A stretch of 64,000 nucleotides of DNA from a bacterium (GCA_030704665.1 JAUYID010000009.1:160454-224453); one strand, 5' to 3'; counted from the stretch's first letter, positions 16,086-56,931 are shown. Numbers and translations: made by a program. Notes: generated from the sequence alone by a model not told the origin.

Positions 16086-16994
16086 ATGAGTTCAGGCCCC
16101 ACCCGCCTGGTTATCGGTGGTATTTTCTGTCTAATCGGATTCTTCTTTGTGCGCACTTTTGTTCATTTGAACGAGAGCGGTTTGCAGTTAGCTGCCTACT
16201 TCGGTGCGGTAGTTGTCGGGGGAGCAATCGGGGTCTATTTGATCCCGTTTCTTACAAACTTTCTCGCCGTTCTCACCGCCAATATTTCAAAGAGAGTTGC
16301 TGCCGAAGTTTCATCTCAGCTTCGTTTACCCTCGATTCCCAGGCAATTCCCACGACGGGAAAAAGAAAATGGCCAAAAATGGATCAACCCAATCTGTGTT
16401 GATACCAGTGCTTTGATTGACGGTAGAATTGCAGAAATCGTCGAATCAGGCTTCCTTTTCGGTACGATCGTTGTTCCCAACTTTATTTTGCTTGAGCTAC
16501 AGCACATTGCTGACTCAGCTGACGATCTCAAGCGAGGTCGGGGAAGAAGAGGTTTGGAGATAATGGAAATGATCAAAAAATCCAGGTATGTGAAAACGGT
16601 CGTTTACAGTGCGCCTGGTGAGGGTTTAAAAAATATTGACGAGAGGCTGCTCAAACTTGCCAAAAACCTCCATGCCAAGATCTTGACTACTGATTTTAAT
16701 CTGAACAAAGTTGCCACTGTCTCAGGGGTCAAGATTTTGAACGTAAATGAGCTTGTCAACGGGATCAAAACCCCTTTCTTGCCTGGTGAAGAGATTGAAG
16801 TCAAGGTTGTTTCTGAAGGAAAAGAAAAAGAACAAGGAGTTGCCTACATGCCGGACGGAACGATGATTGTGGTCGAGAGAGGAGCTGGCTACGTAGGTAA
16901 GAAAATAAAAGTTGTCGTTTCTCGCGTCTTTCAGACCGTTGCTGGACGCATGATTTTCGTCCAAATCCCCGAACAAGTTACTTCCCACAAATAG
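16086..16994 (+). CDS. YacL-like membrane protein with PIN and TRAM domains
   Basis: N-terminal TM helices, a PIN-like nuclease fold, and a C-terminal TRAM beta-barrel (VVERGAGYVGKKIKVVVSRV). Position after clpC-radA matches Bacillus synteny. Confidence 0.65.
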   Translation: MSSGPTRLVIGGIFCLIGFFFVRTFVHLNESGLQLAAYFGAVVVGGAIGVYLIPFLTNFLAVLTANISKRVAAEVSSQLRLPSIPRQFPRREKENGQKWINPICVDTSALIDGRIAEIVESGFLFGTIVVPNFILLELQHIADSADDLKRGRGRRGLEIMEMIKKSRYVKTVVYSAPGEGLKNIDERLLKLAKNLHAKILTTDFNLNKVATVSGVKILNVNELVNGIKTPFLPGEEIEVKVVSEGKEKEQGVAYMPDGTMIVVERGAGYVGKKIKVVVSRVFQTVAGRMIFVQIPEQVTSHK

Positions 16995-17164
16995 ACCGCT
17001 TTTTTCTCTAGCCACAAATTGCTGTACCAAACTTATAACAGAACCCTTGAGAGGAAAAGCCATTGGGAAGATCCACTAACTATCCACAAAAGGAAAAACA
17101 GCTATTTTTGAAGCTAAATTAACTATGGGGTAGAGGAAGAAGAGGACAATCTTTTGCTATAGGG

Positions 17165-17193
17165 TTGACAAAACTTGACAAAACAACTATAAT
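17165..17193 (+). promoter_or_regulatory. Perfect-consensus sigma70 promoter (TTGACA-17 nt-TATAAT)
   Basis: TTGACA at 17165-17170 and TATAAT at 17188-17193. Precedes about 480 nt with no plausible ORF, then a long stem plus U tract near 17600-17680. Confidence 0.55.
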
Positions 17194-17971
17194 ATGCCAA
17201 GATACCTCCAGTGAACGTTAAAGGTAGCTGGTGTATCTAGCTCTTTTAACAAAACAGGAACTGCCTTTTAGGTAGGCCTTGAGAGATTCTCGAACGGGCA
17301 GGGCGAGAGTCTTGACCCGCCATCTGGCGGGTGGAATTATCCGAAAAAGCCTAACTGTTTTCTTGACAGGATATTTGAGGGGTAGAAAGTAAAACTCTTC
17401 AAAAACGAAGCACCACCATGGCCTGTGGATCAATAGTCGCCGATGGCGGTGCCCCGGGAATACATCTGGACAGCAGGTGTACTCTTTAATGATTATTAAG
17501 ACAGCAACGAAAACAAAAATCAAGTCTGAAATGATCCTGACAAGAAAAGACGAAGCACAGTTATAACAAATAGTGAGTCCGAGGCATCCTAATTCGAACC
17601 TAGAAATGTTTAAGCAGAGGTCCCGGCGTCTGGTTTGGGGTAACACTCTTACTGGGCGCTGAGATCTCTGCTTAAGTTTTGCAGGATCGAAAAAGGGTGT
17701 TTTATGACAAGAAATTGACCAAGGCCTTTACAAGGCCTTTTTTTGTGCCTAAAAAAGGTAATTTTGTGCCTAGAGAAAATTTGAAAAATAAACAACTGAG
17801 ATTTTTATCGCACCTTTAATAACCAGTTTTTGGGTAAAAAAACTGATCATAAATTCGAAGCTATGAGTGTTTCTCCTTAGCCTCAAGAAGGGCAACCACT
17901 AGTTAAAAAACTCTTTAATTGGTGGTTGCCCTCACTCGAGGCGCAAAATTGAATTCAAATGGAGGAGCATC

Positions 17972-18292
17972 ATGCCTAGCGAACTTCCCGGGGGTCCAAT
18001 CCTGATCGTCTACGTTGCTGCTGCTGCCTTCATGGTAGCTGGACTAATCTGGAACCTCAAGTGGAGGAAGAAGAAGCGGTCTGAAGCCGACGACGCCTTC
18101 ATGATCGCCCATCGGCTTGCCGCGGCGAACCCAAACCTCAACCGCTACCAGCGTGAAGCAAACTACTTTCGCTTCACGGCCATGGTGCTGGAAGGGAGGG
18201 GTTCAGCAGTGGTGAGTGAGCACATCGGCTACATCCTTGAGGCTCTCGAAAACGGGCCGCAGCTTGTGGCGCAAGGAGGTGGAACTCCTTAA
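17972..18292 (+). CDS. Small membrane-anchored hypothetical protein (106 aa), first gene of the GC-rich island
   Basis: N-terminal TM helix (ILIVYVAAAAFMVAGLIW). GC-rich codons unlike the surrounding genes. Confidence 0.45.
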   Translation: MPSELPGGPILIVYVAAAAFMVAGLIWNLKWRKKKRSEADDAFMIAHRLAAANPNLNRYQREANYFRFTAMVLEGRGSAVVSEHIGYILEALENGPQLVAQGGGTP

Positions 18293-18331
18293 CCATCAAG
18301 GTAAACCGAACTCATCAACAGGAGGAAAACG

Positions 18332-19711
18332 ATGAATACCGGAAACAAACTGATGGGGTTGGGGGCGTTCCTCTTCGCCATCGCAGTCGCACTGACCTTC
18401 GCCATGGGCGGAGAGAAGGTGTTGACAGGCAATGACGTGGGCTTCCGAGTCCCGTTGAGGCCTGCTGACCCTTCGATCGCCGAGTCCTTGCCTTGCAAGG
18501 AAGATGAAGGTCAGTTGGTTGTACGCCCCCTGAACCGCCTTACTGGCAGCCTTTACAAGGGTCTCCAGGCAACGGCGGTGTACGGGTCTGAGCCTCTGCG
18601 CGGAAAGACGCAGGACGACGGCACGATCGTGTTCAGTGGAGTGCCGATAGGTGCTCAGCCGGCCGTCATCTTCGAGAGTAACGAGTTGGTCTGGACGGGT
18701 GATCGTATCTCCGAAAAGCACGTCCCGCTGCAACGCAGCCATGAGGACTGCACTGCGGAGACGGCGGTCTACCTTGTTCCGCTCAGTGATCCGAAACCGA
18801 CCGACTATACGACCAACATCGATCAGGACGGGTGGGGTCCGCAGTCGGCACCAGCGCCTTTGGCTCTCTTGCCCGGCCACGAACAGCAGCTGGTGAGTTC
18901 AGTACCGATCGCGCCAGACCCGAGCGCGGAACAGTTCTTCATGGGTCTCGACCCGCGAGAGCAAACTCGAGTCACTATGAACTGTAACGGGTTCAAGGTC
19001 GACGCTAATTCGGATCCGAAAGAGCTGATCTTCGACTACGATGAGGCCGTGAGCAAGGGCTTTATCAGTCAGCTCGAGGCGGCTGGTTTCGATTTCGAGA
19101 AGGGTCCGGGTGGAAAGCTTCTCATCAAGGGAAGTGGCTACAAGGTGAGCGTTCTTCTGGACGCAGGTAGCTGCGACACCCGTTTGGCAGGGGGCTTTAG
19201 CTTCAGCGGTGAGCCAGCCTCAATCGTCCAGCTCTTGGACGGTACGGTGGCAGTTTTAGACGACAAATGTCTGAACCTGATCACCCCCACGAAACCGCCT
19301 GAGGAGACACCAACCCCGACCAACACCCAGACCAAGACGGTCACTCCGACGGGGACAGTACCGGCAACAGGTACGCCAACGCCTACCTCGAGCCCAACGA
19401 ACACACCGAGCCCGACGAAGACTTTCACACCGACGAAGACGCCGGTCGTGAAGGAATTCCCGTCGTCGACACCGAAACCGCCGACCAGCACACCGGTGCC
19501 CTCGGCTACGGCAACTCCCGGTTGTCCAGGAGACTGTACACCGCCGCCGACGATAGCACCGACTAAAACGCTAGCGCCGGTTACGAATACGCCAGCGCAC
19601 CCGACGAACACGCCGATACCGTGCGACTGTCACAAGACGCCAACGATACCGGTGCCGACACCAACGGACTACCCAACCGAGGTGCCCACGCCGACACCCT
19701 GGATAGTCTGA
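18332..19711 (+). CDS. Secreted or membrane-anchored protein with a C-terminal Pro/Thr-rich region containing Cys pairs. In the GC-rich island.
   Basis: N-terminal hydrophobic segment, then about 300 aa, then (P/T)-rich linker-like repeats (TPTPTNTQTKTVTPTGT...GCPGDCTPPPT...CDCHKTP). GC about 60% by eye. Confidence 0.5.
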   Translation: MNTGNKLMGLGAFLFAIAVALTFAMGGEKVLTGNDVGFRVPLRPADPSIAESLPCKEDEGQLVVRPLNRLTGSLYKGLQATAVYGSEPLRGKTQDDGTIVFSGVPIGAQPAVIFESNELVWTGDRISEKHVPLQRSHEDCTAETAVYLVPLSDPKPTDYTTNIDQDGWGPQSAPAPLALLPGHEQQLVSSVPIAPDPSAEQFFMGLDPREQTRVTMNCNGFKVDANSDPKELIFDYDEAVSKGFISQLEAAGFDFEKGPGGKLLIKGSGYKVSVLLDAGSCDTRLAGGFSFSGEPASIVQLLDGTVAVLDDKCLNLITPTKPPEETPTPTNTQTKTVTPTGTVPATGTPTPTSSPTNTPSPTKTFTPTKTPVVKEFPSSTPKPPTSTPVPSATATPGCPGDCTPPPTIAPTKTLAPVTNTPAHPTNTPIPCDCHKTPTIPVPTPTDYPTEVPTPTPWIV

Positions 19712-19961
19712 CGAATGAGTAAAAGAGAGGGAATACAGGGAGACAGGAATAGAGATCAAAAGACTTGTAGTGGCAACACTGAAGTCTTCCTGCCCCTCTC
19801 TTTGAGCAAATCAAGCAAATTGGTTTTCTCGGAAAGGGGAGAACAAAGAACTACAAAGCCGATAGAGAGAGCTTTGGCTTGTTTGTTGATAAAGTCACTA
19901 TTACGCTCTTAAATTAAGGTATAAGGCCTTTGCCAGCCCCCAAGGGTAAAGAACGCAGGGC

Positions 19962-19991
19962 TTGACAAGGACCTATAGTGTAGGATATAAT
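19962..19991 (+). promoter_or_regulatory. Sigma70-like promoter (TTGACA-18-TATAAT) for the LPXTG protein gene
   Basis: cTTGACAaggacctatagtgtaggaTATAATact, about 75 nt upstream of the ATG at 20070. Confidence 0.5.
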
Positions 19992-20069
19992 ACTTGTACT
20001 TTTAACTCCCGCCCCGCTTTCAGAAGCGCTTATAAATTTGCCTGACCCAAGTTCTGTAAGTAAAAAAAT

Positions 20070-21356
20070 ATGTTGAAAAAATTAACAGCGAGTTTGCTTA
20101 CTGCCATTTTATCATTACCACTTTCTTTAGGGGTGGTTTCTCCATTGGCTTCTGTTGCCAATGCTACGGCTCCTCATTACACTCCAACTTTTGGAGTTGA
20201 TAAGGATCAAGCTAAAGCAGGAGATACTCTCACCTATACTTACAACGTCAAAAACGATGGTCAAGTTGATCTTACCAGCGTCTTTTTGGCTGGAAATCTT
20301 TCCAACTACATTACTTTGAAGCCTGGTACAACTACCGCTACTAAAGGTTCTACTTCTGTAACTGGATCTGATGCTTGGATCACTGACGGTCTCAACCTCG
20401 GTGGTCTTAAAGTTGGGCAAAGTGCTTCTGTAACTTTCAAAGCTACAGTTAAAGCGGGTGTTGCCGCTGGCTCTCTTATTCAAACTGTGATGCAAAGCAA
20501 AACAAATGAGCTTCCAAACTGGATTCAATGTGCTGCTTATACCAATGTGGGTGCTACTTTGCAGTACAAACCTTCTAAGAGTGTCGACAAGGCGACCGCG
20601 ACTATTGGGGACACTTTGACCTACACTTTGAAAGTAAAGAACAGCGGTGACTTGCGTCTGCACGATGTCTCTATCGCGGAAACCTTACCGACCAACGTTG
20701 ACTACATTGCTGGCTCTACTGTCTCAACCAAAGGTAGTTCTACAGTTAACGTTACCGACGCTTGGATTGCTGATGGAGTCAATCTGGGAAGCTTAGAAGT
20801 TGGACAAACTGCAACCGTAGTCTTCAAAGTCAAAGTTTCTGACTCTGCTAAAGACGGTGACACACTTCAAAACGTTGGACACTTCACAGCTAAAGAGTTG
20901 CCAAATGAAATCCAATGTGCTGCTTTGACCAAAGTTGTCGTTCCTAGCAAAAAGGGTTACATCAAAGTCATCAAGTTTGAGGACTTCAACGGCAACGGTG
21001 TCAAAGATGGCGCTGACAAAGCTCCAAAGACAAGCTTTACCTTCCGTGTCGTTGGTATGGGTCTTGATTTCACTTTGACTACCAATGCTAAAGGTACAGC
21101 TGTCAGTGGTGCCCTTCCAGTTGGAAGCTACACTGTAACTGAGAAAAGTAAAGCCGGTTGGACGGCAACTACCGCTAAGACGGTAACTATCGAAGTCGAA
21201 AACAACAAAGTTACCGAGGTGCGCTTTGGTAACAAGCAAGCTGGTAAAGTTCTGCCAACAGAACTTCCCAACACTGGTCCTGAACTATTCCTCTTAGGTC
21301 TGCTTGGTATCGGTCCGGCTGGACTGGTCATCAAGAAGCTTAAGAGCCGAATCTAA
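20070..21356 (+). CDS. LPXTG-anchored cell-wall surface protein with two DUF11-type repeats and a Cna-B/SdrD-like domain
   Basis: Signal peptide. Two GDTLTYT..V.N.G repeats (DUF11 signature). KFEDFNGNGVKDGADKAP...GSYTVTEK (Cna B-like). C-terminal LPNTG, then a hydrophobic stretch, then KKLKSRI. Confidence 0.7.
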   Translation: MLKKLTASLLTAILSLPLSLGVVSPLASVANATAPHYTPTFGVDKDQAKAGDTLTYTYNVKNDGQVDLTSVFLAGNLSNYITLKPGTTTATKGSTSVTGSDAWITDGLNLGGLKVGQSASVTFKATVKAGVAAGSLIQTVMQSKTNELPNWIQCAAYTNVGATLQYKPSKSVDKATATIGDTLTYTLKVKNSGDLRLHDVSIAETLPTNVDYIAGSTVSTKGSSTVNVTDAWIADGVNLGSLEVGQTATVVFKVKVSDSAKDGDTLQNVGHFTAKELPNEIQCAALTKVVVPSKKGYIKVIKFEDFNGNGVKDGADKAPKTSFTFRVVGMGLDFTLTTNAKGTAVSGALPVGSYTVTEKSKAGWTATTAKTVTIEVENNKVTEVRFGNKQAGKVLPTELPNTGPELFLLGLLGIGPAGLVIKKLKSRI

Positions 21357-21520
21357 GAAGCTTAGAAACTGATCTCCTGCCCGATCGGTTTTTAGCCTGT
21401 TGGAAAGAGAAAAGGCAGTCTATTGACAAGAGGTAGTGCAGAGTGTTTTAATGAGTGCGTTCTCAAACCTCACTTCAGTTTCCCTAGAATTTAAAACAGT
21501 GAGCTAGCCCAAAAAATAAA

Positions 21521-22783
21521 ATGCCAAGAACTGCAAAAGAAAAAACTGATACCAAGGTTTCTTCGGATGAAAAAGTCCTTGAGGAAACTCCACAAGAAAT
21601 AGCAACACCAGAGACTCCGAAAGGGAGTGACTTTGACTACGAAACTCGCGATAGTTTTGATAGTTTGGCTGCCCCAAGTACACGCGGAAAAGGTGTGCTC
21701 GAAATGATGCCGGAAGGTTACGGCTTTTTGCGGGCCAACGGTCTGACTGCCGGTAACGGAGACATCTATATTTCCCAATCCCAAATTCGTCGTTTTGATA
21801 TTCGAGCTGGAGACAGTGTTGAAGGGTTGGTTCGTCCTCCCAAAGACACCGAGCGTTATTTTGGTATGCTCAAAGTTGAGAAGATCAATGATGTCAGCCC
21901 AGATCAGGCGATGAAAAGACCAAAGTTTGAAAACTTAACCGCCGTTTATCCTGACAAACAACTCAAGCTTGAAACCGGTAAACTACCCCTTTCGACCAGA
22001 ATGATTGACCTGCTTGCGCCGATTGGTTTCGGACAGAGAGGTATGATCGTCTCCCCACCCAAAGCAGGTAAGACCACGATTCTTAAAGACATCGCTCACG
22101 GTGTTGCCACCAACTACCCTAAAGCGCATTTAATGGCCGTCCTGATCGGTGAGAGACCTGAAGAGGTGACCGACATTACCCGCAACGTCAAAGGTGAAGT
22201 CCTTTCCTCAAACTTTGATGAGCCGGCTGAAGCCCAAACCAGGGTTGCAGAAGTTGGTTTGGAAAGAGCCAAGCGCCTAGTTGAAAAAGGGGAGGACGTC
22301 ATCATTCTTTTGGACAGTATTACTAGACTGGGACGTGCCTACAACTTAGCCTTACCACCTTCAGGAAGAACCCTTTCCGGAGGTTTCGACCCAATCGCTC
22401 TTTACCCACCCAAGAAATTCTTTGGGGCCGCCCGAAATTTTGAAAAAGGTGGCTCGTTAACAATTCTGGCAACTGCCTTGGTAGACACCGGAAGCAGAAT
22501 GGATGATCTCATTTACGAAGAATTCAAAGGAACAGGAAACATGGAGCTCCATCTCGACCGCTCGCTGGCGGAAAGAAGAATCTTCCCCGCTATTGATGCG
22601 TCGAGATCTGGTACCAGAAACGAAGAGCTACTTCTTGGTGAGAAGGATCTTCAACAAGTTTGGCGCTTGCACCGCATGTTGGAAGCTCTGAACGAGCTGG
22701 AAAGAACCGAACTTCTCATTGAAAGACTTTCAAAATCAGGAAGTAACGAAGAATTCCTCGCTTCCCTTCATAAGGGCGACTAA
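21521..22783 (+). CDS. rho: Transcription termination factor Rho
   Basis: Rho N-terminal RNA-binding domain (GYGFLR). RecA-like ATPase with Walker [17 protein letters not shown] loops. 420 aa. Confidence 0.85.
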
Positions 22784-23043
22784 ATTTACCCAATATTAAC
22801 TAAATATTTTGTTGCAACAACCAATTGAACTATGGTTAGCAGACTAGTCCAGAGAGTGGTAAGTTAAATTGGCCAAGACTTGCTAGTCTATGTTAGAATA
22901 AAAGTTGTTAAAAAGTTAGTCGTTTGAGCCACTGCCTGGCAAGCAAAGGCAACTATTTAACGGAGGGCACCCAGCGCTTTGTTGGTCAGTCTAGACAGTT
23001 TAGACATTTAGGATTGGTTGACAAAGTGCTGGGTATTTTTTCG

Positions 23044-24270
23044 ATGGAACAACCCATCAAAGAGGACAGCAGCGACAATCTTTACAGCTACAATATCACT
23101 TCAAGTTTCCTAGATCTCGCTTCTTACAGTGAAGAGGGCTACGCAGTCAAAGAAAGAAAAGGTCTGCTCTTTCAGACTAGACTGGTTCTTCAGGTGCTCT
23201 TAGGTTGGCTAGGGTCCCTAGTCTTGGTGAGCTGGGACAGCCTGAGATTTCTTTTTGCTTACGCTTTCTTCATACAAAAGAAAGCAGTTGCCCTGGTTCA
23301 TTTTCTTGATCTCTCAAAGGATCAGGCGGTTCATTTTATGATGTGGCGCCGCGGAGTTCTTTTTCGACCCGCCACCCACGGTGGGTTTTTGGCTCTTGGG
23401 GCGCTGGCGATTCTCGTTGGAGGGATTTTTTCTAAAGTTGAAATTGCGGCACAAGATTTAACTGCTTCTGAAAACCTAGTTTCAGCCCCCAACACCCCGG
23501 AGACGATTATTCCTCTGGGGCGACCACGCTCCGAGATCGTAAAGTATCAAGTAAAAAATGGTGACACTATTTCCTCAGTCGCCAAAAAATTCTCAGTTTC
23601 GGCTGACAGTATCAAGTGGGCCACCAGCTTAAAGGCAGACAAAATCAAACCAGGAGAAACCCTGAAAGTACCTCCGGTGACAGGAGTAGTCTATAAAGTT
23701 GCCGCCGGCGATACTCTAGCTAGTGTGGCAGCCAAATACTCAGCTGATAAACAAACGATTGCCGACTACCCGTTCAACTATATCGACGCAACTCTGCAGT
23801 TAAAGTTGGGACAAACCCTGGTAGTTCCCAACGGCAGTATTCCTGAGCCCAAACCGGCGCTTGCCACTCCGGCTCGATCCTATCTTCCAAATCTGGTAGC
23901 CCACGGTAGCGGTGCTTTGGCATGGCCAGTCCGCGGCTGTCAAATCAGTCAGTATGCTTCCTGGTTCCACCCTGCCATTGACATCGCTTGTCCTTATGGG
24001 ACTGCCGTTTACGCAGCCGATTCCGGCCGGGTCATTGTTGCTAAAAAACTCGCTTACGATTTTGGTTGGCACGTTGTCATTGATCACGGCAACGGGATGA
24101 CCTCACTCTATGCCCACATGTCAGCTCTTTACCCGAGGGTCGGGGATAATATCGGCCGCGGGCAATTGGTTGGGGCAGTTGGAACTAGTGGACGAGCGAC
24201 TGGTCCTCACCTGCACTTCCAGGTTACAAGAGCAAGCAGCAGTCTCAACCCAATGTCGTTGCTGCCTTAA
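23044..24270 (+). CDS. Membrane-anchored M23 family peptidase with two LysM domains. Start uncertain; the ORF extends up to 22924.
   Basis: TM segment. LysM repeats YQVKNGDTISSVAKKF and YKVAAGDTLASVAAKY. M23 motifs HPAIDIA...GWHVVIDHGNGMTSLYAHMS. Confidence 0.7.
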   Translation: MEQPIKEDSSDNLYSYNITSSFLDLASYSEEGYAVKERKGLLFQTRLVLQVLLGWLGSLVLVSWDSLRFLFAYAFFIQKKAVALVHFLDLSKDQAVHFMMWRRGVLFRPATHGGFLALGALAILVGGIFSKVEIAAQDLTASENLVSAPNTPETIIPLGRPRSEIVKYQVKNGDTISSVAKKFSVSADSIKWATSLKADKIKPGETLKVPPVTGVVYKVAAGDTLASVAAKYSADKQTIADYPFNYIDATLQLKLGQTLVVPNGSIPEPKPALATPARSYLPNLVAHGSGALAWPVRGCQISQYASWFHPAIDIACPYGTAVYAADSGRVIVAKKLAYDFGWHVVIDHGNGMTSLYAHMSALYPRVGDNIGRGQLVGAVGTSGRATGPHLHFQVTRASSSLNPMSLLP

Positions 24271-24311
24271 ACCATCTTTAACCTTTCCCAAAATTCCTTT
24301 AAGCTTAAGCA

Positions 24312-25319
24312 ATGATTGATAGCGTTCAAATAAGTCTAAAAGCCGGTCGAGGAGGAAACGGTCAAGTTTCCTTCAATCGCATGACTGGCAAGACTTACGG
24401 GCCTCCTGATGGGGGCAACGGCGGTAAAGGGGCAGACCTTTACTTGGAAGCAACTTCTGATTTAAATACCCTTTTACCGTTTCGTTTCAGTAAAGTTTTT
24501 GAAGCAGAAAATGGAGAAAACGGTGGTAAAAACAACAGACAAGGCGCTGCCGGCTCTGACCGGGTTCTAAAAGTTCCGGTTGGGACTATCCTCAAATCAA
24601 TCAAAGGCGAGAAGCTTTTTGATTTGGAAGTCGAAGGTAAGAAGGTTTTAGTTGTCCAAGGAGGTAAAGGAGGGCGGGGCAACGCTCACTTGCCTCACTC
24701 ACAGCTTTCTGATCCCAGGCCAGGGAAAAAATGGGACTATCTAAAAACGGCTGAGAAGGGTGCTGCCGGGGAAGTGATCGAACTAAACTTAGAGCTGCAG
24801 GTATTGGCCGACGTTGGTTTAATTGGTTTGCCCAACGTGGGCAAGTCAACCTTGCTGTCAAGGTTAACTGCTGCCAAACCAAAGATCGCTGATTATCCCT
24901 TTACCACCCTAGAACCGAATCTCGGCGTGATGAACTACGGAAGGGGAAACACACAGTCTTTGGTTCTCGCTGACATTCCAGGGCTGATTGAAGGGGCTTC
25001 AGAGGGGAAAGGCCTTGGAGATCAGTTTTTGCGTCACATTGAGAGAACTAAATTGCTGGTGCATGTTTTGGCTGTAAATGAAGCAGACTTACTTAAAAAC
25101 TACCAAACCATTCGAGAAGAACTAAAGGCCTATGATCCGACCGTTACTACCAAAAAAGAAATCGTCGTCCTCAACAAAGCCGACCTGGTTACACCAAAAG
25201 AAATGAATGAGAAGGTAAAACAACTGTCAAAATTAAAAATAAAGCCACTCGTGATTTCAGCTGCGGCTGAGATTGGTTTGGATGAGTTGAAAAAGAAAAT
25301 CGTCCAGGCCAGTAAATAA
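24312..25319 (+). CDS. obg: GTPase Obg/CgtA (short form without a TGS domain)
   Basis: Gly-rich Obg fold GRGGNGQVSF...GGNGGKGADL. G1 GLPNVGKST. G3 DIPGLIEGA. G4 NKAD. Confidence 0.85.
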   Translation: MIDSVQISLKAGRGGNGQVSFNRMTGKTYGPPDGGNGGKGADLYLEATSDLNTLLPFRFSKVFEAENGENGGKNNRQGAAGSDRVLKVPVGTILKSIKGEKLFDLEVEGKKVLVVQGGKGGRGNAHLPHSQLSDPRPGKKWDYLKTAEKGAAGEVIELNLELQVLADVGLIGLPNVGKSTLLSRLTAAKPKIADYPFTTLEPNLGVMNYGRGNTQSLVLADIPGLIEGASEGKGLGDQFLRHIERTKLLVHVLAVNEADLLKNYQTIREELKAYDPTVTTKKEIVVLNKADLVTPKEMNEKVKQLSKLKIKPLVISAAAEIGLDELKKKIVQASK

Positions 25320-25321
25320 GG

Positions 25322-26026
25322 TTAGATTTCTACACTTTGTCCGTCGTCGAGGACAATTACTTCGACTTTTTCTGGGGCTTGGTTAGCAAACTCATTTGGG
25401 TCCGCTTTCCAGGCCGAGTAATGAATCGGAACGATGCGTTTTGCACCTAGGGATTTTGTTAATTCCCAGGCCTGCGGAAAGCGAACTGTCGGCCCGGCAA
25501 TAGGAATAGCAGCACTTTCAATTTTTAGATCAGCAATTTTGATCCCGTCTCCCGGATCGAAAAAGATTCCGTTTATTACATAACCAGTGTTGGGTGGGCC
25601 GTCTCTACGCTCTGGTTCCAAGTCCATATGGAGCCCGCACTTTCCGTCTTCGGTGATTGTTTCTGTGGTGACTCTGTTATTACAACCACGGCACCAAAGA
25701 CCTTGAAAGTGGGCTAGGTCTATGGGTAAAATTTTGAAATTTTCCACCTCGAATTCGACCCGGTCTTGAACAGGGTTAACTTTTATCCCAGACTTTGCAG
25801 CTAGTTTTACTACCGCTGAGTTAGCATAAATAGGTAGTGAGGTAAAAGCCTTGAGGTGTTCGGCGTCGAAGTGATCTGGGTGTTCGTGAGTAATTAAAAC
25901 AGCATCAACTTTCCCCAGATCAGCAGCGGAAAATTTCTCAAAGGTATAGACTCCCGGATCAATCATCAGGTACTTACCATTTTCTTCGATTATTAAATTG
26001 GATTGGGGGAATTTAGTTATTTTCAT
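25322..26026 (-). CDS. MBL-fold metallo-hydrolase
   Basis: HEHPDHF motif. Start trimmed to the Met of MKITKF because the longer ORF would overlap the tRNA ending at 26032. Confidence 0.6.
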   Translation of the reverse strand: MKITKFPQSNLIIEENGKYLMIDPGVYTFEKFSAADLGKVDAVLITHEHPDHFDAEHLKAFTSLPIYANSAVVKLAAKSGIKVNPVQDRVEFEVENFKILPIDLAHFQGLWCRGCNNRVTTETITEDGKCGLHMDLEPERRDGPPNTGYVINGIFFDPGDGIKIADLKIESAAIPIAGPTVRFPQAWELTKSLGAKRIVPIHYSAWKADPNEFANQAPEKVEVIVLDDGQSVEI

Positions 26027-26031
26027 AGTTT

Positions 26032-26107
26032 TGGTGGACCGAGGGAGATTCGAACTCCCGGCCTTTGCAATGCGAATGCAACGCTCTACCAACTGAGCTA
26101 TCGGCCC
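26032..26107 (-). tRNA. tRNA-Ala (anticodon CGC)
   Basis: Reverse complement gives gggccgatagctcagttggtagagcg ttgca-ttCGCat-tgcaa ... ttcgaat ... tcggtcc-a-cca, with G3:U70. Confidence 0.8.
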
Positions 26108-26123
26108 CGGATGAAATTGTTAA

Positions 26124-26198
26124 TGGTGGACCGGAAGAGACTCGAACTCTCAACCCCCTCCATGCCATGGAGGTGCGCTACCATTGCGCCACCGGCCC
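26124..26198 (-). tRNA. tRNA-Ala (anticodon GGC)
   Basis: Reverse complement gives gggccggtggcgcaatggtagcgc a cctcc-atGGCat-ggagg ... ttcgagt ... ccggtcc-a-cca, with G3:U70. Confidence 0.75.
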
Positions 26199-28673: not shown

Positions 28674-31600
28674 CTACTCCTCCTGATCAACTAAGAGCCA
28701 GTTAAATTCAACCGCCTTTGGCGCTGTCACTGGCGCGTTACTTTCAAGACTACTGTCAAGACCAACAGTGAAAGACTCTCCTTCTTTGACTTCCTTTATA
28801 TATAGACTCAGACCCGCAGTTTTTGTTTTTGGGGTCAGATAAATTAACGATTCAGACTTTACCTTTGGAGTTTGGATCGTCACCTCTTCCTGACCAGCTT
28901 CAAAGCTAGCAGTCCCGGCGATTTGGGCAGTTTTTTTGATTGTTAATCTCTCGCCAATGACCAGCTCTTGAACTCGAACAAAAGTTGCTTGAACAGAGCT
29001 AAAGATAGCCTCACCAAGATCAGAAATCGAAGCAACAACTTCTCCAAAAGCGTTCTTAACTTTAAATTGACTTTGAGCTGAAAGTGAGGCAACTAAGTTC
29101 TTTTCTTCATCAAGACTTAGTTTTGCTAGGGCTGAATCATCCAAAGCCAAGGTGCTGACATCAGTTGGATTCGAAGACCCAGTTTCTTGGTTTTGGGTTT
29201 CGCCTTCGGCGACAGTTGTCAAAAGATCAGAATTTTCTGGTTGGGTGATACTGTCGTCCTGCCAGACGCGGAAATAGTCAACATCAAGATTAGCTGTTCC
29301 GGCGGCGGTCGTTACCGACATCAAAAACATTGACATGGCCGTGTTACCCATAGCTGAAGTAGTTGAAGTCACAGTTCCACAACTAGTCTCGACAATTCCG
29401 TTGGTGACATCATTGTCGACAAAAAACTGAATTTCCGGTGAGGTTGTCGAAGTTGCTTTACGAAACTCAATTCTTAAATAAGAAAAGTTGGTCGTTCCGA
29501 AACCAGTGGTTGGACAGGTGACGACGTTGGCAGCGTTGGTCCCATCCTGGACGACCCCGTACCAGCCAGTGGTGTTGCAAGTCGGAGTGGTTGGGGCTGA
29601 ACAAGTAGAGAAGTAAACTCCTTTGTCCCCGACAACAGGAGCGTTTTTCGCAGTTGCAATGTTGCTGATACCAGCATAGTAGCGGGTTGTAGTCGCACTA
29701 ACATTGGTTCTCACTTTCATGACAACTTGGGGGAAATTGCCGGTATTAAAGATATTGTTGTTGGTGTTGTTGGCATTGGTTCCGATGGACTCGAGACAGG
29801 CGACCCCAGTGCCCGTGTTGTAGCTGGAAGCAATCCGCTCAAAACCGTTGGTTGCGTTGTTGGAGGAGTAAGTACAGGTATTACTAGCATTGGAAGTACC
29901 GGCAATAGAGTTGGTGGTGATTTCACCGGTTTGGGCAGTACAGGAAGTAGCTGGGTTGCCGTATTCACCGCGGGCCTGTTGGTGGCTGGTAGCAGTAAAG
30001 CTAGAGTCCGCACAGTTACCACCGCGAAAACTATTGAATTCTTCGGCGAAGTAGGATTGTTTGCTGACAAAGGCGTCAGCCAAGACCAGGGAGCCAAACT
30101 GGGTGCTGTTGCCGGTCAAGTCACGAATTTGGAGAAGGTTGGTAGAGGCAGCATTATTTAGTGTCAGAGAAGTGACAGAGTTGGCCCCTGCCGTATTGAT
30201 AGTAAAGACAGAGGCAGCTTTGTTAAGTCGAATATCAGCTCCGCTTCCGCTGTTTGCAATACTCAGGACCGCACCAGTTGCACTAGGGTAGGCCTGATTT
30301 AAAGAAAGAATGTTGGCCGAATCGGTGACTGCACTTCCAAAACCGGTCCAACTACTTGTGAAAGAAGCAACTGCTCCGGTGATATTTAAAGCGGTACCAT
30401 CATTAATAGTTGTTCTAGAAAGAGACAGTAGGTTCCCACTTCTGGTGCTAGTTCCGGTATCCGAGAAGACCGCTTCCTCAACATTAACCAAATTCCCACT
30501 GATCGTGGCCCCACTCCAATTAAGGAAGTTAGGGTTGAGTTGAATATCCAAAAGTCTACCACTGCTTAGAGTGTTTTCAGCGGTAATCTGAACAGCTTTC
30601 CCCTCGGTCAGGGCACCTGCAGAAGTAACAAAGCCAGTACCACTGGTAAGCGCATCGACTGAGGCGGTGATAGCGGTTGCAGTTTGGACTCCACTGAAAA
30701 GAGAAATAGTTGAAGAAGCGTTGGTGTTGCCGATGTTGATCAGACTTATCCCCGGAGAGTCGTTGTTGTAGCCAATATTTATTTGCTTGTTGGAAGTTCC
30801 GGCACCAAGATCAATTTTTGAGGTAGCCGCAGCACCAGTAGGTACCTCTAGACTAATTGTGTGGACGTTGCCACCAAGATCTTCTAAAGTGGAGATACTA
30901 AAGTAGGTATTACTACCGTTTTTAATAGTCAGAGCGTTGCTCGTGCTGTTGGCCAAAGCAAGGTTGCTCGCCCCAACGAAGTTGATGGCGTTGTCCCAAC
31001 CGGCACCAATATTGATTGCATTTTCGGTCGCTTGGGCATCGGCAGTAATACCGGCAATATCGATACCATTGAAAGTGTTGCTTGAGCCAGTGTGGTCAGC
31101 GTTGGTGTAGTTGAGATAAAGACCGCGGAAAGTATCTGACCCGTCAAAGGCAGCTAAAGAGCCGGAAAGGGTCAAAACATCAGCCCCGTTGCCAGCCGTG
31201 TTGACGCCGTTGTAAGTCCCGGTAGTGAAAGTCGAAACACCAGCTGAAGTAATTCTTGTAATAGCACTGAGCAAAAGGTTCCCACTAGTCAAATCAATAT
31301 TGCCCCCGGTTTCGTTGAGGATAGAGTCCCCAATGTGACTGCCGTCAGGAGTAAATTTGGCAATTCTACCGTCAGTTCCGCTTCCGCCAATGATTCCACC
31401 TGAGCCTGCACAGTTGCCCAAGGTTAGTAAGCAAATTGAGTCTGAAGCAGCACTTGAGACGGGAATAATCACTGTTTTGTCCGCTCCTGGGTCAGCGGCA
31501 GTCAGTTCAATTTCAAAACTGTCTGCAGTTGCGCCTTCAAAGAAGAGACTGTTGCCATCGCCACCAGCGGTAGCGGTGAAGGCGGCTCCAGAAGCGATAT

Positions 31601-34600
31601 CTCCGACGGCGATAATGTCACCGGCAGCTCCGACGCCAGTAATTTCTTTCCAGGTTAAGGTGTTTCCAGTTTGCCAGGTAAGAACATAATCAGCGGAAGG
31701 GGGAAGAGAATCGTCGTCAGGTAAAGTGTAAATTCGGTCAGTGGTGATCGCGTCCGGAGCTTTGAAGCCAGCATAGCCGCTACCGTTGGCAGCAAGCTCG
31801 AGAAAGCGCAGTTCACCAGTATTTCCTGCCCCGCCTCCCGTGGGGTTTAGTAGTAAGCCAACAAAGGTAGGAGAACTTGTAGTTAGTAGGTCTTGGTTCA
31901 AACTGACATCAGCTCCACTCACAGTTAAGGTTCTTGAAGTTGTCCCACCGGAAAGAGAGAAACCGTCTGCGTTGGCTGAAGCCAATGTCTTAGTACTTCC
32001 AGCACCTGTATCAACAACTGCATAACCGGAGACATCAGGGAAGACTAAGGAACGTATTCCGGTAGGGGCGGTTCCAATATATAAATACTGGCCCGAGCTA
32101 GTGTCTCCAAAAACTAGGTTTCCCGAAACAATGTTTAGGTTCGTACTTCCAGACGGGTTGTTGATTTTTAAGTTGCAGCCAATACCAAGGACAGAATTGC
32201 AGACTTCGATCGTTTTATCACTTGCATCGCTGAAAAGTAGGTTAGCATCACTGATAGTCAAGGTTCCACTGGAATTTATTGATAGAGCATCACCCCCGTC
32301 ACCAATGCTGGCTGAAGTAGTAAAATTGATATCTCCACTTACAGTTAGCTCATCGCCGATAACCGCGCTCGAGTTGGTTTGAAGAGTGGTTGCGACCAAA
32401 AGACTGCCACCCAAAGTAGTATTGCCGTCAAAATCAACCCGAAATTCTTCGGTAGCACAGCTAGCACCAGTGCAGAGGTGTATTAGATCGCCACTAGCTC
32501 CGGTTTTGTTGATGTAAATTGAGTTTCTCGTGGTGTTGTCTATGTCAGCAAGGGCTGAGCCCGGGTTGTCTGGGTCTTCTGGAGCAAGATGGACAAAAGC
32601 GTTGCCGACGACACCTCCACTGGCGGAACAAGAAGCAATCAGGTTTGTGGTTGTATTGTTACGACAGAGAACTTCTGTATTTAGATCAGGAGCAGCTAAA
32701 GATCCGGTTAGTTCAATGTTGGCATCAAACCGGACTAGAGATTGAGAGTGAATGCCATAGTCCCAGCCAGTTCCAACACTGATTCCTGTTTCTGACCCCG
32801 AACCCCCCGTGATTCCCGAAATCGAAATCCCGTTGATGGTGCTGGTGTTGTTACTGGGAGCCGAGATTGTTAGTGGAGTTGTGTTGATATAAGGAGTAGC
32901 GAGATTTAAAGCTCCGAAATTGTTAAGAGTAAAAATATTGGTTCCACCATAGGCAACTCTCAAATAATTTCCAGAAGTAGTTGCCGCAATCGTAGCAGAG
33001 TAGGCAGTTGCCGGACCAGCAGTAATGCTATTTACAAAAACCCGAGCGTAATAGCGGGGTGTGACACCGGTCTCTGCACTTTGTATCCAACCACCCGGAA
33101 CAGCCCAAGTGACAGTACCGTCACTTGTTAAATTGCTAGTTCCGTCGGAGACCCCAGTCAAACTACTCCAAGTATCACAGGCCGTTGCGGTGGAAGCGTT
33201 GGCACTACAATATTCCCAGCTAACGCTAGTTGGGGCCCCCGCCAAAGTAGCAAAATCAATATAAACGCGGCTAAAGGGGGTACTTTCGCCGAAATTGAGG
33301 CTGTCATTTGCAGAAGCCCCAACCGTAAAAGGAGTACCCCCCAAACTAGCTGCCTCAGACGTTACCGTAGAAGTGGGTGTTCCATTGATAGAGTAGAGGA
33401 CATGGTCGAAAACCCCGTCAGTCGAAGAAGCCCCACTAATATCGATATAGTCTCCGGTGAAAGTTGCCGCCCGATTTTCTAAACGAATCACATCAGTTGT
33501 TGAAGTATTGCTGGTTGCAGCGCGCGCGTAAATGTTGGCGCTATCTGCTCCTTCTGAATAGAAAGCGTAGTCGTTGGTTCCTCCGGTCAAGTTTAGAGCG
33601 TGGATCCCGTATTGATTAGTTAAGGTTCCACCAGTGGGAACTTGGTTGTTGATCAAAAAGCCGTTTAAGTTAGTTACGGTTACTCCAGTGGTTACTCCAG
33701 AGCCAAGAAAGGAACTTGAGGTGGAGAATTGGTTGACATTGCTAACTGTCAAAGAAGCGGTTCCAGGATCATCAACTAGTAAATCAAAAAAACTAGAGTA
33801 GTTTACCAGGGCAGAAAGGGTGTGGGCTCCGGTGGCGCTGCTAGCTACCTCTACGTTTGCGACATTGGATAAGTTGATGTTGTTGGTAAGTATATTTACT
33901 CCTGGTTGGTTAATAAGGTAAGTCGGGGAAATAATTTGAAAAAGATCTGCTCCGGCCAAAATATCGGGAGAAGTGTTGACGATAATTGTTGGGTCAAAAG
34001 TTAGAGCTGCAAGACTAGCCGCGGCAATATTTTTTACATAATTACCACCAACGTGGATGACTGGGCTTTGGATAGCCGTGACTTCGGTCACTGCGTTGGC
34101 ATCAGCCGGGTCCACATTAATTTCGATAGCGTTTTCCCAACCCGTGCCGATTCTTAAACCCGCTTCATTGATAGCATTGTTGGGAGTCACATTGCTGACT
34201 AAAATGGCATTTAAAACCGGTGTTCCGGAGGGGGAGCCGCCAGTATAGCCACTAACATCTACAGTTAGACCGTTTAAATCGCCAGTCAAAGTAGTTGCAG
34301 AGGAAGCCTCTACATTGATCAAACCGCCGCTACTAAGGGAACTACGCACATCCAGAGTGCTAGTCGGAGAGTTGGTTCCAAGGCCTAGATAGTTGTTGGT
34401 GTTATTAAAAAAGAAATTTGAATTGTCCTGAGTCAGAAGCCCGCCGCTGCCGGCAAAAATTACCGAGCCAGGAGTAAAACTAGAAACTGCCTGGAGAGCT
34501 ACTGTTCCGGAGAGATTGGGCAAAGTGTAAGTCCGCTCAGAGCTTAAAGCGGTTGCAGTTAAAAGGCCTTGAGAGCCGTTGTGAAAATAAAGTTCGTTGC

Positions 34601-55813: not shown

Positions 55814-56875
55814 TTAGAAGTTCCCGGTAGTGATCAAAGTTACAGTGTGAGAGTAGCTTCCCGCTGGTGTGGCTCCGGTAATTGAAGCTGCATGACAAAG
55901 AGTAACTACGTCACCTGCAGTTGGAGCTGAAGCATTGGCGTAAGTCTCAGTACCGTCGATCGGTTCCGCAGCTTCAGAGGCACCTCCACCACAGGCACCA
56001 TCGTAGTCTCCAGCGTCTGGAGTCCCGGTAGTGTCGCTACTAGCAAAACCATATTCTTCTGAGCCGGCATTAACAGCACCTCCTGCTGAATCGCCAATGC
56101 TATTAGTACAAACTGCGACTGACGGAGAACAGAGGTTTCCATCTTCAACCAGGGTGGAGCCGTATCCAGAAGTAGCGTTGGTAACAATAGTATTGGTATA
56201 AGTACAGCCGCTGACACTAGCAGTTGTTAGAGTACCTAGAGCACAAGTAGTGTCGCTCAAAGTCGCAGTAATGGTTGGGTCAACAGTAGCCGAAACGCTG
56301 ACCTGATCAGCACTCATGATTGGGACGGCGAGACTGCCAGTGTCCCCAAAGGTTCCGCCGATCGAAATTGTGTTGCTTCCGTCTGATCCTGGGTTGGTAA
56401 TTTGTTCATTTCCAGCTTCATCGGCGGTGGCGTTGGTGCCAATTTCAATGGTTACCACCGAACTGCCGTTAATATAAGTCGCCGCTCCAGAAGGAGCAGT
56501 TAGAGTCAAAACGTCGGCAGCAAAGGCAGCTCCCCACTCAGTAGCACTAGCGGTACAGCCGCCAGCTTCTTCCTGTATGTCTTCATCGACCGTGTCGTCG
56601 GTAAGGTCGACATCGCCACAATCAATAGTGCTCGTATCAAAGTCAGCGGGGAAAGTCACAGTGATAGTCTCGTCCTGAATTACTTCAGTACCGGCGGTCA
56701 TCGTAAAGCTGATCAAATGGTTGGAGGCGGTTGTAACTGCCAAGCGTGACATAGTGTCAGAAAGAGCGGTAAGGTTGCCGGCTCTTGAAGGGGTAGAGAA
56801 GGCGGGGAAAAGCAGAGAAACCAACAAGGCGGCAGCTAGTATCCTTATTAATTTCTTTCTCAGATTTATTTTCAT
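55814..56875 (-). CDS. Secreted Thr/Gly/Ser/Ala-rich protein with a WxL-like C-terminal motif. Paralog of the 56932 gene.
   Basis: Signal peptide. C-terminus TLCHAASITGATPAGSYSHTVTLITTGNF, paralogous to TICYHASKAGLTPAGSYSQIVTFITTGSF. Resembles the WxL-domain ending AGTYTG..TWTL with W replaced by F/L. Confidence 0.45.
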   Translation of the reverse strand: MKINLRKKLIRILAAALLVSLLFPAFSTPSRAGNLTALSDTMSRLAVTTASNHLISFTMTAGTEVIQDETITVTFPADFDTSTIDCGDVDLTDDTVDEDIQEEAGGCTASATEWGAAFAADVLTLTAPSGAATYINGSSVVTIEIGTNATADEAGNEQITNPGSDGSNTISIGGTFGDTGSLAVPIMSADQVSVSATVDPTITATLSDTTCALGTLTTASVSGCTYTNTIVTNATSGYGSTLVEDGNLCSPSVAVCTNSIGDSAGGAVNAGSEEYGFASSDTTGTPDAGDYDGACGGGASEAAEPIDGTETYANASAPTAGDVVTLCHAASITGATPAGSYSHTVTLITTGNF

Positions 56876-56931
56876 TGCTGGAACAAGGATTAACTATATT
56901 ATGAAGGTCAAGAAAAAGTCTGTCAAGCAAA

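Follow-up and report, generated by a model that had tools for sequence, protein, structure and literature searches.

The subject of this analysis is a GC-rich island at positions 17960-19720 of a 64,000-nucleotide stretch of bacterial DNA (GCA_030704665.1 JAUYID010000009.1:160454-224453), which in its entire length is referred to below as the window. The island holds two open reading frames (ORFs), orf106 and orf459, downstream of a structured non-coding RNA gene and upstream of a gene for a DUF11 protein. The features of the locus are listed here in their order along the window, with GC3 denoting GC content at third codon positions, TM transmembrane and UTR untranslated region.

17165-17193, + strand: perfect sigma-70-type promoter, TTGACA-17-TATAAT (12/12 match), for the non-coding RNA that follows
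17200-17685, + strand: structured non-coding RNA, the left landmark of the island; 5' end placed from the promoter, conserved blocks at 17381-17681 in 29 sequences
17609-17676, + strand: terminator-like hairpin at the 3' end of the RNA, about 68 nt, with an invariant 41-nt apex (17623-17663), a covarying basal stem and a U-run
17721-17746, + strand: second intrinsic-terminator-like hairpin with a T-run
17889-17932, + strand: stem-loop 40 nt before orf106, which may belong to the 5'-UTR of the island mRNA; 19-nt arms, 89% complementary
17972-18292, + strand: orf106, small single-pass membrane protein of 106 amino acids; GC 57%, GC3 0.645
18332-19711, + strand: orf459, predicted N-terminally anchored extracytoplasmic protein; GC 59.6%, GC3 0.687
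18350-18403 (residues 7-24), + strand: signal-anchor/TM helix of orf459; Kyte-Doolittle 2.29
18506-18781 (residues 59-150), + strand: beta-sandwich of orf459, CarboxypepD_reg-like by position and motif
19268-19276, + strand: C-x-N motif of orf459 (C313, N315), which ends the globular part just before the Pro/Thr linker
19280-19708 (residues 317-459), + strand: Pro/Thr-rich tail of orf459, 57% P+T, with the Cys pairs C398/C402 and C431/C433 and a hydrophobic C-terminus, PTPWIV
19962-19991, + strand: perfect sigma-70-type promoter of the DUF11 gene (12/12 match), the right landmark; similar in the related locus L082
20070-21356, + strand: DUF11/CLIPPER and SpaA-like protein, the right flank, with a sortase signal (LPNTG...KKLKSRI); GC 44.7%

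The GC content of the island is 58.8%, compared with 44.9% in the remaining 62 kb of the window, and no other segment of the same size reaches this value (z = 4.95; elsewhere mean 0.450, standard deviation 0.028, maximum 0.513). An earlier note on this DNA had described a GC-rich island against a background of about 42%. The island itself is borne out, since at a z-score of about 5 it lies beyond the variance of the window, whereas the background figure holds for the immediate flanks only (36-42%) and should read about 45% for the window at large. The abrupt change in composition and codon usage that the note had placed near 17960, with a reversion near 19715, is confirmed by segment GC, GC3 and codon counts. 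From 35.8% at 17746-17971, GC steps to 57.3% in orf106, falls to 46.2% in the 39-nt spacer between the ORFs, reaches 59.6% in orf459 and returns to 42.2% at 19712-20069, so that the step tracks the coding sequences, almost exactly from start to stop codon. Within orf459, GC3 is similar in the globular part (0.693) and in the tail (0.674), and among the other 37 long ORFs of the window 35 have values of 0.36-0.50 and two lie outside this range, at 0.545 and 0.597. Both C-ending and G-ending codons are increased for almost all amino acids, and codons that this genome otherwise uses rarely are among them: the share of ACG goes from 8% in the genome to 42-48% in the island, CCG from 21% to 48-62%, AAG from 30% to 79% and ATC from 0.38 to 0.94. 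GC at the first and second codon positions (GC1, GC2) is raised as well, and the ratio of the amino acids G, A, R and P to F, Y, M, I, N and K (GARP/FYMINK) is 1.39-1.46, compared with 0.91 +/- 0.26.

Each ORF is preceded by a GGAGG ribosome-binding site (17961-17965 for orf106, 18321-18325 for orf459) and encodes one strongly hydrophobic N-terminal segment of 19 residues (Kyte-Doolittle 2.3). In the orf106 product the TM segment, at about residues 8-27, is followed by the sequence KWRKKKR and a presumably cytoplasmic tail of ~75 residues. The anchor of orf459 is a helix in the AlphaFold2 (AF2) model, in which the strands of the beta-sandwich at residues 59-150 have moderate confidence (predicted local distance difference test, pLDDT, 60-82). 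The sandwich carries the motif KTxxDGxFxFxxVPxG, and its assignment to CarboxypepD_reg is to be understood as a resemblance rather than as demonstrated membership. The C-x-N motif is invariant in alignments A1 and A3, and reads CGN, CLN, CVN or CAN in nearly all alleles of the island. The tail, in which 39 of 143 residues are Pro and 42 are Thr, contains the motifs GCPGDC (C398, C402) and PCDCH (C431, C433), and its C-terminus (...EVPTPTPWIV) carries no LPXTG signal. The products are therefore those that the earlier note had named, a small TM protein and a Pro/Thr-rich protein with Cys pairs. The stem-loop at 17889-17932 may act in the 5'-UTR of the operon; stem-loops also precede the first island ORF in two related loci, L002 (6303-6362) and L083 (1364-1446), each with a different sequence.

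A composition change as abrupt as this one could arise if a GC-rich fragment of another organism had been mis-joined into the contig during assembly, a chimeric join that the earlier note had allowed for. An independent Logan contig (SRR13727534_448970, 8550 nt) agrees, however, with window positions 17622-26171 over its whole length (0 mismatches), the two GC junctions included, and the low-GC, GC-rich, low-GC layout was found in more than 20 independent assemblies, two complete chromosomes included. The orf459 product is on record both in a 938-kb contig of a metagenome-assembled genome (MAG) at NCBI (Q8P13_01110) and in the Logan contig of run SRR13727534. The end of the Logan contig at 17622 might be counted in favour of a mis-join, but it lies 340 nt to the left of the GC junction, where a 42-nt sequence begins that does not vary among relatives, and a break is expected there because the invariant RNA core is common to co-occurring relatives and causes branching of the assembly graph. 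The chimeric join is refuted by these observations, and the probability that we still attach to it is negligible.

Position and alleles of the island in related genomes

The window carries tRNA-Ile, tRNA-Ala, 23S and 5S rRNA genes, and its Rho protein is most similar to those of MAGs from the Microgenomates group of the ultra-small Patescibacteria (WWE3, Levy-, Davies-, Curtiss- and Gottesmanbacteria). The best Rho matches among the closest species representatives are those of L002, L003 and L004, with 79%, 77% and 76% identity, respectively (related loci are designated by L, and proteins retrieved from databases by P). These three and many other records matched by Rho are titled 'uncultured Gammaproteobacteria' or 'Candidatus Nanoarchaeia'; the records are probably mislabelled, since gene order and Rho similarity place them in Patescibacteria.

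The window shares with L002, L003 and L004 the gene order Clp ATPase, radA, PIN/TRAM, a gap of ~3 kb, DUF11, rho, M23 peptidase and obg. In the three relatives this gap contains ~1 kb without ORFs, then a small TM ORF or a multi-TM extension, and then a protein of 360-515 amino acids with a TM anchor, a beta-sandwich, a Pro/Thr-rich tail and Cys pairs. The gene in the gap is GC-rich relative to its surroundings in each case (60.5 vs 44.3% in L002, 57.1 vs 45.1% in L003, 56.1 vs 43.1% in L004). A separate small TM ORF equivalent to orf106 is found in L002, L083, L101, L103 and L109, and in L003, L004, L096 and L097 an N-terminal multi-TM extension is fused to the large protein instead. The occurrence of the small TM protein as a separate product in some genomes and as a fused one in others suggests that it works together with the large protein.

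A 25-mer from the invariant block of the RNA was used to fetch 27 metagenome loci. Counting in the genome loci, 21 loci had enough downstream DNA, and they comprise 14 complete islands and 7 beginnings of islands. In every one of the 21, GC climbs downstream of the RNA to 55-70% within 0.2-1.8 kb, holds for 1.2-2 kb and drops to 35-45%. The complete alleles have a GC content of 0.55-0.62 and a GC3 of 0.54-0.70, in surroundings of 0.40-0.47. An island thus occupies the same site in L002, L003, L004, L082, L083 and all 21 sufficiently long related loci, and in none of the related loci is the RNA directly followed by the DUF11 gene, as it would be at an empty site. The L083 contig, which holds the relative P0021, carries ORFs of 142 and 367 amino acids followed by DUF11 and rho, and the 2-kb contig of another relative, P0018, has the layout of the window: a GC-rich small ORF and a large ORF, after which GC declines and a consensus promoter leads into the beginning of a DUF11 gene. 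The order of the locus is radA, PIN/TRAM, structured RNA, the pair of small TM and large modular protein genes, DUF11/LPXTG and rho, and the pair is GC-rich, within AT-rich surroundings, in every genome examined.

Word-indexed searches of 5.8 billion proteins with orf459 and orf106 returned only the query proteins and low-complexity matches to the tail. When the globular 316 residues were compared by phmmer with 1.84 billion cluster representatives, two relatives were obtained, P0018 (38% identity) and P0019, and a profile search added P0020 (the L002 protein), P0021 and P0022. The similarity of the window protein to its positional equivalent in L002 is distant and covers the end of the globular domain and the tail (E = 4e-6). 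The BLASTP-type comparison of both ORFs that the earlier note had proposed as a check therefore points to no donor lineage, only to members of the same family, and the contexts that were checked are this locus; among about 15 billion proteins no homologue was found in another genomic context, those of P0019 and P0022 not having been looked up. PHROGs contained no match, the 2.9 million viral contigs searched no relative, and Pfam no family for either ORF. The neighbours of the island are PIN/TRAM, DUF11 and rho; no integrase, tRNA target or flanking direct or att-like repeats were found at the island, and the nearest tRNA genes are at 776-850 and 26032-26198.

These results bear on the proposal, made in the earlier note, that the island was acquired horizontally. 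If this genome had recently taken up a foreign GC-rich fragment, as in a classical genomic island, its GC, GC3 and codon usage would be atypical and its ORFs might well be orphans, and both are the case here. However, the same site is occupied by a GC-rich island in all relatives, mobility genes, tRNA targets and direct repeats were not found at it, no donor came to light, and the substitution counts described below carry no amelioration signal. Recent import from a foreign GC-rich donor is accordingly unsupported, and we consider it very improbable. The part of the proposal that stands is exchange of alleles and modules among related lineages, and since such exchange takes place horizontally, it is quite possible that the window allele came from a relative, as a replacement. 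Atypical composition alone is evidence neither for such a replacement nor for an ancient acquisition.

The alleles of the island are modular. Their N-terminal part comprises one or several TM helices, a CarboxypepD_reg-like beta-sandwich and a variable domain that ends in C-x-N; their C-terminal part comprises a Pro/Thr linker, an optional SpaA-type domain, an optional C-terminal domain, of which there are at least three kinds, Ig-like (immunoglobulin-like), and a final Pro/Thr tail. The window allele is a short form with anchor, sandwich, variable domain and tail. In relatives PF13620 scores above the Pfam cut-off (55.6 bits in L003, 42.4 in L097 and 37.6 in L089), and the L089 allele contains a SpaA-type domain (47 bits). 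In all alleles the modules are set apart from each other by Pro/Thr linkers. Past the first linker, Cys residues occur in even numbers in 13 of 14 alleles, which is what disulfide bonds in an exported protein would lead one to expect. Surface exposure is a prediction with which the TM or signal anchors, the CarboxypepD_reg and SpaA domains of relatives, the Pro/Thr linkers and the even Cys count would agree.

Relationships among the modules were determined by masked BLASTP. The N-domain of L084 matches L090 and L100 and its C-domain matches L107, the N-domain of which matches L004 and L109; L086 and L100 have only the C-domain in common, and P0019 joins a globular part like that of the window to a tail almost identical to that of L090. 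The island proteins of L002 and L003 are 29% identical (E = 1e-19). Between L084 and L107 the DUF11 genes are 93% and the RNA flanks 86% identical, yet the islands share only a module of 90 residues and their N-domains are unrelated. The pairs L096/L100 and L086/L096 have DUF11 proteins with 65-67% identity and no detectable similarity between islands, and conversely the islands of L003 and L096 are 49% identical and their DUF11 genes unrelated. Because near-identical flanks carry different alleles or modules, these comparisons indicate that alleles and modules are exchanged between lineages by recombination. The SpaA-like modules inside the L089 and L108 alleles resemble the domain of the adjacent DUF11 gene, in L089 the C-terminal domain of the neighbouring protein, which suggests domain exchange between the island gene and its neighbour.

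A hypervariable surface protein could also be the target of a diversity-generating retroelement (DGR) or of another kind of templated hypermutation, and DGRs are common in this lineage. The variation at this locus, however, consists of whole-module replacement and not of substitutions at adenine sites. There is no template/variable repeat pair in 16900-20200, where only short low-complexity repeats occur, and no reverse transcriptase among the flanking ORFs at 14.6-25.3 kb, the rest of the window not having been scanned for one; these ORFs encode a RadA-like protein (by sequence only) and PIN/TRAM, DUF11, rho, M23 and Obg proteins (by Pfam). Complementarity between the RNA hairpin and the tail is at chance level across loci. 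We therefore regard a DGR as extremely improbable.

We conclude that what the window carries here is one allele of a hypervariable surface-protein locus, which is specific to a clade within Microgenomates (Patescibacteria) and fixed in its position. It is very probable that we are dealing with a conserved, allele-swapped locus, which is neither a chimera nor a recent foreign insertion.

More distant Microgenomates possess neither the RNA nor the island. Across L005-L081 the interval between PIN/TRAM and rho ranges from ~1 kb (L061, L062 and L051, in which it is essentially empty) to 9 kb, and Pro/Thr-rich ORFs of ordinary GC are frequent in it; it seems to serve quite generally as a hotspot of surface-protein genes. 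GC-rich islands (55-65% vs 40-46%) that encode membrane or secreted proteins were also observed near rho in other Microgenomates, mostly Levybacteria, at the following positions.

L025: 2301-4400 (GC 64.5%)
L029: 651-2400 and 3585-4571
L034: 3701-6350
L035: 1301-3771
L073: 3951-6100
L014: 5551-6700

The islands of L029, L035 and L073 are mutually homologous, and the Levybacteria islands have no BLAST similarity to the island family of the window. GC-rich membrane-protein islands may thus be a wider feature of Microgenomates.

The DUF11 gene that forms the right flank (PF01345, 77 bits; PF17802, 25.5 bits) is fast-evolving, with 33% identity between the window and L002, yet it is AT-rich. Elsewhere in the window there are two very large ORFs on the - strand (28674-35786 and 48867-53804, with 2370 and 1645 amino acids) and, at 55814-57633 (-), two smaller ones (55814-56875 and 56932-57633), which have no Pfam match at E<=0.01. 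All of them combine high GC2 with normal GC3 and probably encode further surface proteins.

The structured RNA upstream of the island

The RNA was found in 27 metagenome and 4 genome loci, always just upstream of a GC-rich island. There is no convincing ORF within 17200-17685. The stretch of ~980 nt between PIN/TRAM and orf106 aligns with its counterparts in L002, L003, L004 and L083, with a block of 42 nt identical; the promoter region is alignable with L002, L003 and L083, and in most related loci a promoter-like site is located 380-720 nt upstream of the RNA core. Rfam 15 gave no match at E<=1 for window positions 16950-20100 or for 12 related loci. A covariance model of the RNA has a single match in the window (17606-17681, 84 bits); around rho in 61 other species of Microgenomates it has no match. 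The RNA appears to represent a new, previously undescribed structured RNA family.

RNAfold predicts the same 3' hairpin in 29 of 29 sequences. Its basal stem occurs with at least nine different sequences, which are always complementary, and is followed by a U-run in most loci. As RNAalifold, applied to a 350-nt alignment, recovered the invariant helices only, owing to alignment gaps, the basal stem was assessed in an ungapped alignment of 76 columns and 27 sequences. Of 31 pairs, 15 have changed on both sides; 93.5% of cells are paired, compared with about 44% when partners are slid, and the observed covariation score was reached by 0 of 500 shuffles. The G-U pairs in the hairpin assign the RNA to the + strand.

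An additional promoter-like site is present between hairpin and island in most relatives, which speaks against a role of the RNA as leader of the operon; judging from these sites, it is probably a separate transcript of about 450-800 nt. The window itself has no promoter-like site of at least 9/12 between hairpin and island, and there transcription may read through from the RNA.

Several other properties of the RNA region were observed. Extra partial copies of the 5' arm (CCGGCGTCTGG...) are found upstream of the hairpin in L092, L095, L097, L100 and L108 and downstream of it in L091, L093, L094, L099 and L102; in some loci a hairpin copy apparently lies inside another, which could be a nested duplication or an alternative pairing partner. 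An inverted repeat of 17 nt (17002-17018 and 17763-17779, 94% complementary) encloses the whole RNA gene in the window; the idea that it marks transposon ends was dropped, as the repeat is absent from L002, L003, L004 and L083. The hairpin arm at 17623-17650 is 71% complementary over 28 nt to the Pro/Thr-tail coding sequence at 19418-19445, and pairing of the RNA with the tail mRNA was considered. The longest complements across 16 loci are no better than those of codon-shuffled controls, and the match is probably due to chance.

Possible origin and maintenance of the high GC content

Synonymous third-position changes were polarised on the sister branches of four triplets of alleles, with the third allele as outgroup. 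We counted 51 changes from A or T to G or C (weak to strong, W>S) and 49 in the opposite direction (S>W), on 136 W and 296 S sites, which implies an equilibrium GC3 (GC3*) of about 0.69; present GC3 is 0.58-0.70. Star-tree counts give a GC3* of 0.61 for the island, compared with 0.39 for the adjacent DUF11 gene, and the W>S rate per site in the island is twice that of the DUF11 gene. The sub-families are at most 29% identical and their synonymous sites are saturated, yet all are GC-rich, and there is no sign in the parsimony counts of amelioration in the island, that is, of an excess of GC>AT synonymous change. We infer from these comparisons of sequence that the high GC content is a maintained local equilibrium rather than a relic.

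Simple causes of this equilibrium were considered and set aside. Amino-acid content cannot be the sole cause, as Pro/Thr-rich ORFs elsewhere in Microgenomates have normal GC; in the window, the ORF at 55814-56875 has a GARP/FYMINK ratio of 1.71 but a GC3 of 0.42. Fast evolution fails as a cause because the equally divergent DUF11 gene is AT-rich. Translational selection on GC3 is unsupported, since rare G-ending codons are increased as much as C-ending ones; the other two high-GC3 ORFs of the window, for an acyltransferase and a response regulator, are not highly expressed genes.

In bacterial genes that recombine, GC-ending codons are in excess, including non-preferred ones, and codon positions and amino acids are shifted (Lassalle et al. 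2015, PMC4450053). A recombination-linked GC bias would fit the island because the locus recombines, because the excess includes non-preferred GC-ending codons and because all codon positions as well as the amino acids are shifted; as the cause of the GC content it is the likeliest candidate but a tentative proposal, somewhat more doubtful than not. The best explanation as a whole, a hypervariable surface-protein locus whose GC content is locally maintained via recombination-linked bias, we consider probable. The proteins would be exposed on the cell surface as extended, perhaps glycosylated stalks and would diversify under frequency-dependent pressure from phage or host-cell contact. Pro/Thr-linker DNA, the invariant RNA hairpin and the DUF11 promoter region could provide the shared homology for crossovers, and GC-biased repair or gene conversion would accompany unusually frequent recombination at the locus.

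Several observations weigh against this explanation. The GC3 excess of +0.2 to +0.3 is far above the few percent reported for recombining genes elsewhere (PMC4450053). The DUF11 gene has also been replaced between some lineages (L084 vs L096) and stays AT-rich, so that recombination alone may not suffice for the GC content of the island. The match of GC to start and stop codons and the lower value in the 39-nt spacer fit selection on the coding sequence or the mRNA, and the substitution counts are parsimony counts with distant outgroups and few sites. As for the surface protein, the AF2 model of orf459, made from an alignment of 6 sequences, is poor overall (mean pLDDT 49), and orf459 has no match in Pfam at E<=1, PF13620 included.

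Selection of this kind is central to an alternative in which the island was acquired once, or originated de novo, at the base of the clade and its GC content has since been kept by selection on coding sequence or mRNA. Translation might be slowed by rare GC-ending codons to allow membrane insertion or export, for example, or a GC-rich mRNA, RNase-resistant and long-lived, might serve an abundant envelope protein. Such a history is consistent with the way in which GC follows the ORF boundaries, with an inter-ORF spacer of 46%, with the enrichment of codons that are rare in the genome, and with the 5' stem-loop that precedes the operon in the window, L002 and L083; 5' stem-loops stabilise S-layer and omp mRNAs. 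Distant Microgenomates without the RNA and the island, some with almost empty intervals, fit a gain at the base of the clade. On the other hand, GC1, GC2 and the amino acids are shifted too (GARP/FYMINK 1.4-1.5 vs 0.91), which argues for pressure at the nucleotide level rather than for purely synonymous selection, and the secreted DUF11 neighbour manages without such a bias. We regard this alternative as unlikely, though it deserves consideration.

It is less likely still that GC-rich alleles are continually imported by flank recombination from an unsampled pool of donors such as hosts, plasmids or phages. Allele replacement at the locus is real, and unrelated GC-rich membrane-protein islands do occur near rho (L025 with 64.5% GC, L029, L034, L035, L073), so that GC-rich DNA evidently gets into these genomes or stays in them. 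Against this, the searches of 1.84 billion representatives and 5.8 billion proteins retrieved only the same family, in contexts that, where checked, are this locus, PHROGs and 2.9 million viral contigs contained no match, and substitutions after the divergence of sister alleles still favour GC.

We also considered that a process specific to the locus raises and holds GC in a cassette-swapping surface-protein operon of Patescibacteria, whose genomes are reduced and elsewhere AT-rich, with the adjacent RNA as part of the system; we hold this to be unlikely. The process would be strongly GC-biased conversion or repair coupled to very frequent recombination, or a novel targeted mechanism, and the RNA with its invariant 41-nt apex might take part either by regulating the operon or by anchoring the replacement of alleles through its constant homology. 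If this were true, a textbook signature of foreign DNA would be made endogenously and kept over long evolutionary times.

Relation to known systems

Atypical composition is routinely taken as a sign of recent transfer or contamination, and MAG-cleaning tools may remove such segments. The locus described here is a counter-example, in which a GC anomaly is inherited together with its position across a clade, in a module-shuffled surface protein with its own substitution regime. It is also a possible natural test case for GC-biased gene conversion (gBGC) in bacteria. The lifestyle of Patescibacteria is thought to depend on cell-surface contacts, and almost all of their surface proteins are uncharacterised; the locus provides a defined candidate for interaction with hosts or phages, and the conserved RNA, the 25-mer of which retrieves the locus from metagenomes, is a handy marker for it.

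IslandViewer-type methods call compositionally atypical islands of horizontal gene transfer (HGT), for example in Patescibacteria (PMC12455944). The locus shares with these islands its atypical GC and codon usage and its orphan genes, and such methods would flag it. Unlike them, it is not sporadic and comes without mobility machinery, donor or amelioration.

With respect to the recombination-associated GC enrichment for which the gBGC hypothesis has been put forward (PMC4450053), the locus is alike in its raised GC3, its non-preferred GC-ending codons and its raised W>S rate. It differs in the size of the effect: the GC3 excess of +0.2 to +0.3, within about 1.7 kb, is far larger than the genome-wide differences described there, and for the island such a mechanism is a putative one.

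The proteins are comparable to modular surface proteins of Gram-positive bacteria with domains of the CarboxypepD_reg and the prealbumin-like SpaA type. Beta-sandwich domains (PF13620, PF17802) are present in relatives, Pro/Thr stalks or linkers and a predicted extracytoplasmic location are features of both, and here it is the neighbour that is a sortase substrate (LPNTG). By contrast, orf459 has an N-terminal TM anchor, no LPXTG and no Pfam match, its Cys pairs are located inside the Pro/Thr tail, and it has a small TM partner, which is fused in some alleles.

The closest parallel is with flexible islands of the replacement type, such as O-antigen, flagellar glycosylation, giant-protein and S-layer cassettes, in which islands for surface structures are replaced by homologous recombination in conserved flanks (Lopez-Perez, Martin-Cuadrado, Rodriguez-Valera 2014, PMC4033161). 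As in those islands, the position is fixed between conserved flanks, related genomes carry versions that are barely or not homologous, the products belong to the envelope (a predicted role here), and there are no integrases or attachment (att) sites. Exchange by flank recombination, known from those islands, would be reflected here in the discordance between island and flank similarity. Unlike them, the present locus comprises just one pair of genes instead of a biosynthetic cluster and draws part of its diversity from module shuffling at Pro/Thr linkers. Further differences are its markedly high GC content within an AT-rich genome, its conservation over divergences from species to genus level and the dedicated, conserved RNA gene at its left border. 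What is unusual in comparison with known surface islands is the combination of a persistent, locally maintained GC excess with a dedicated and apparently new structured RNA next to it.

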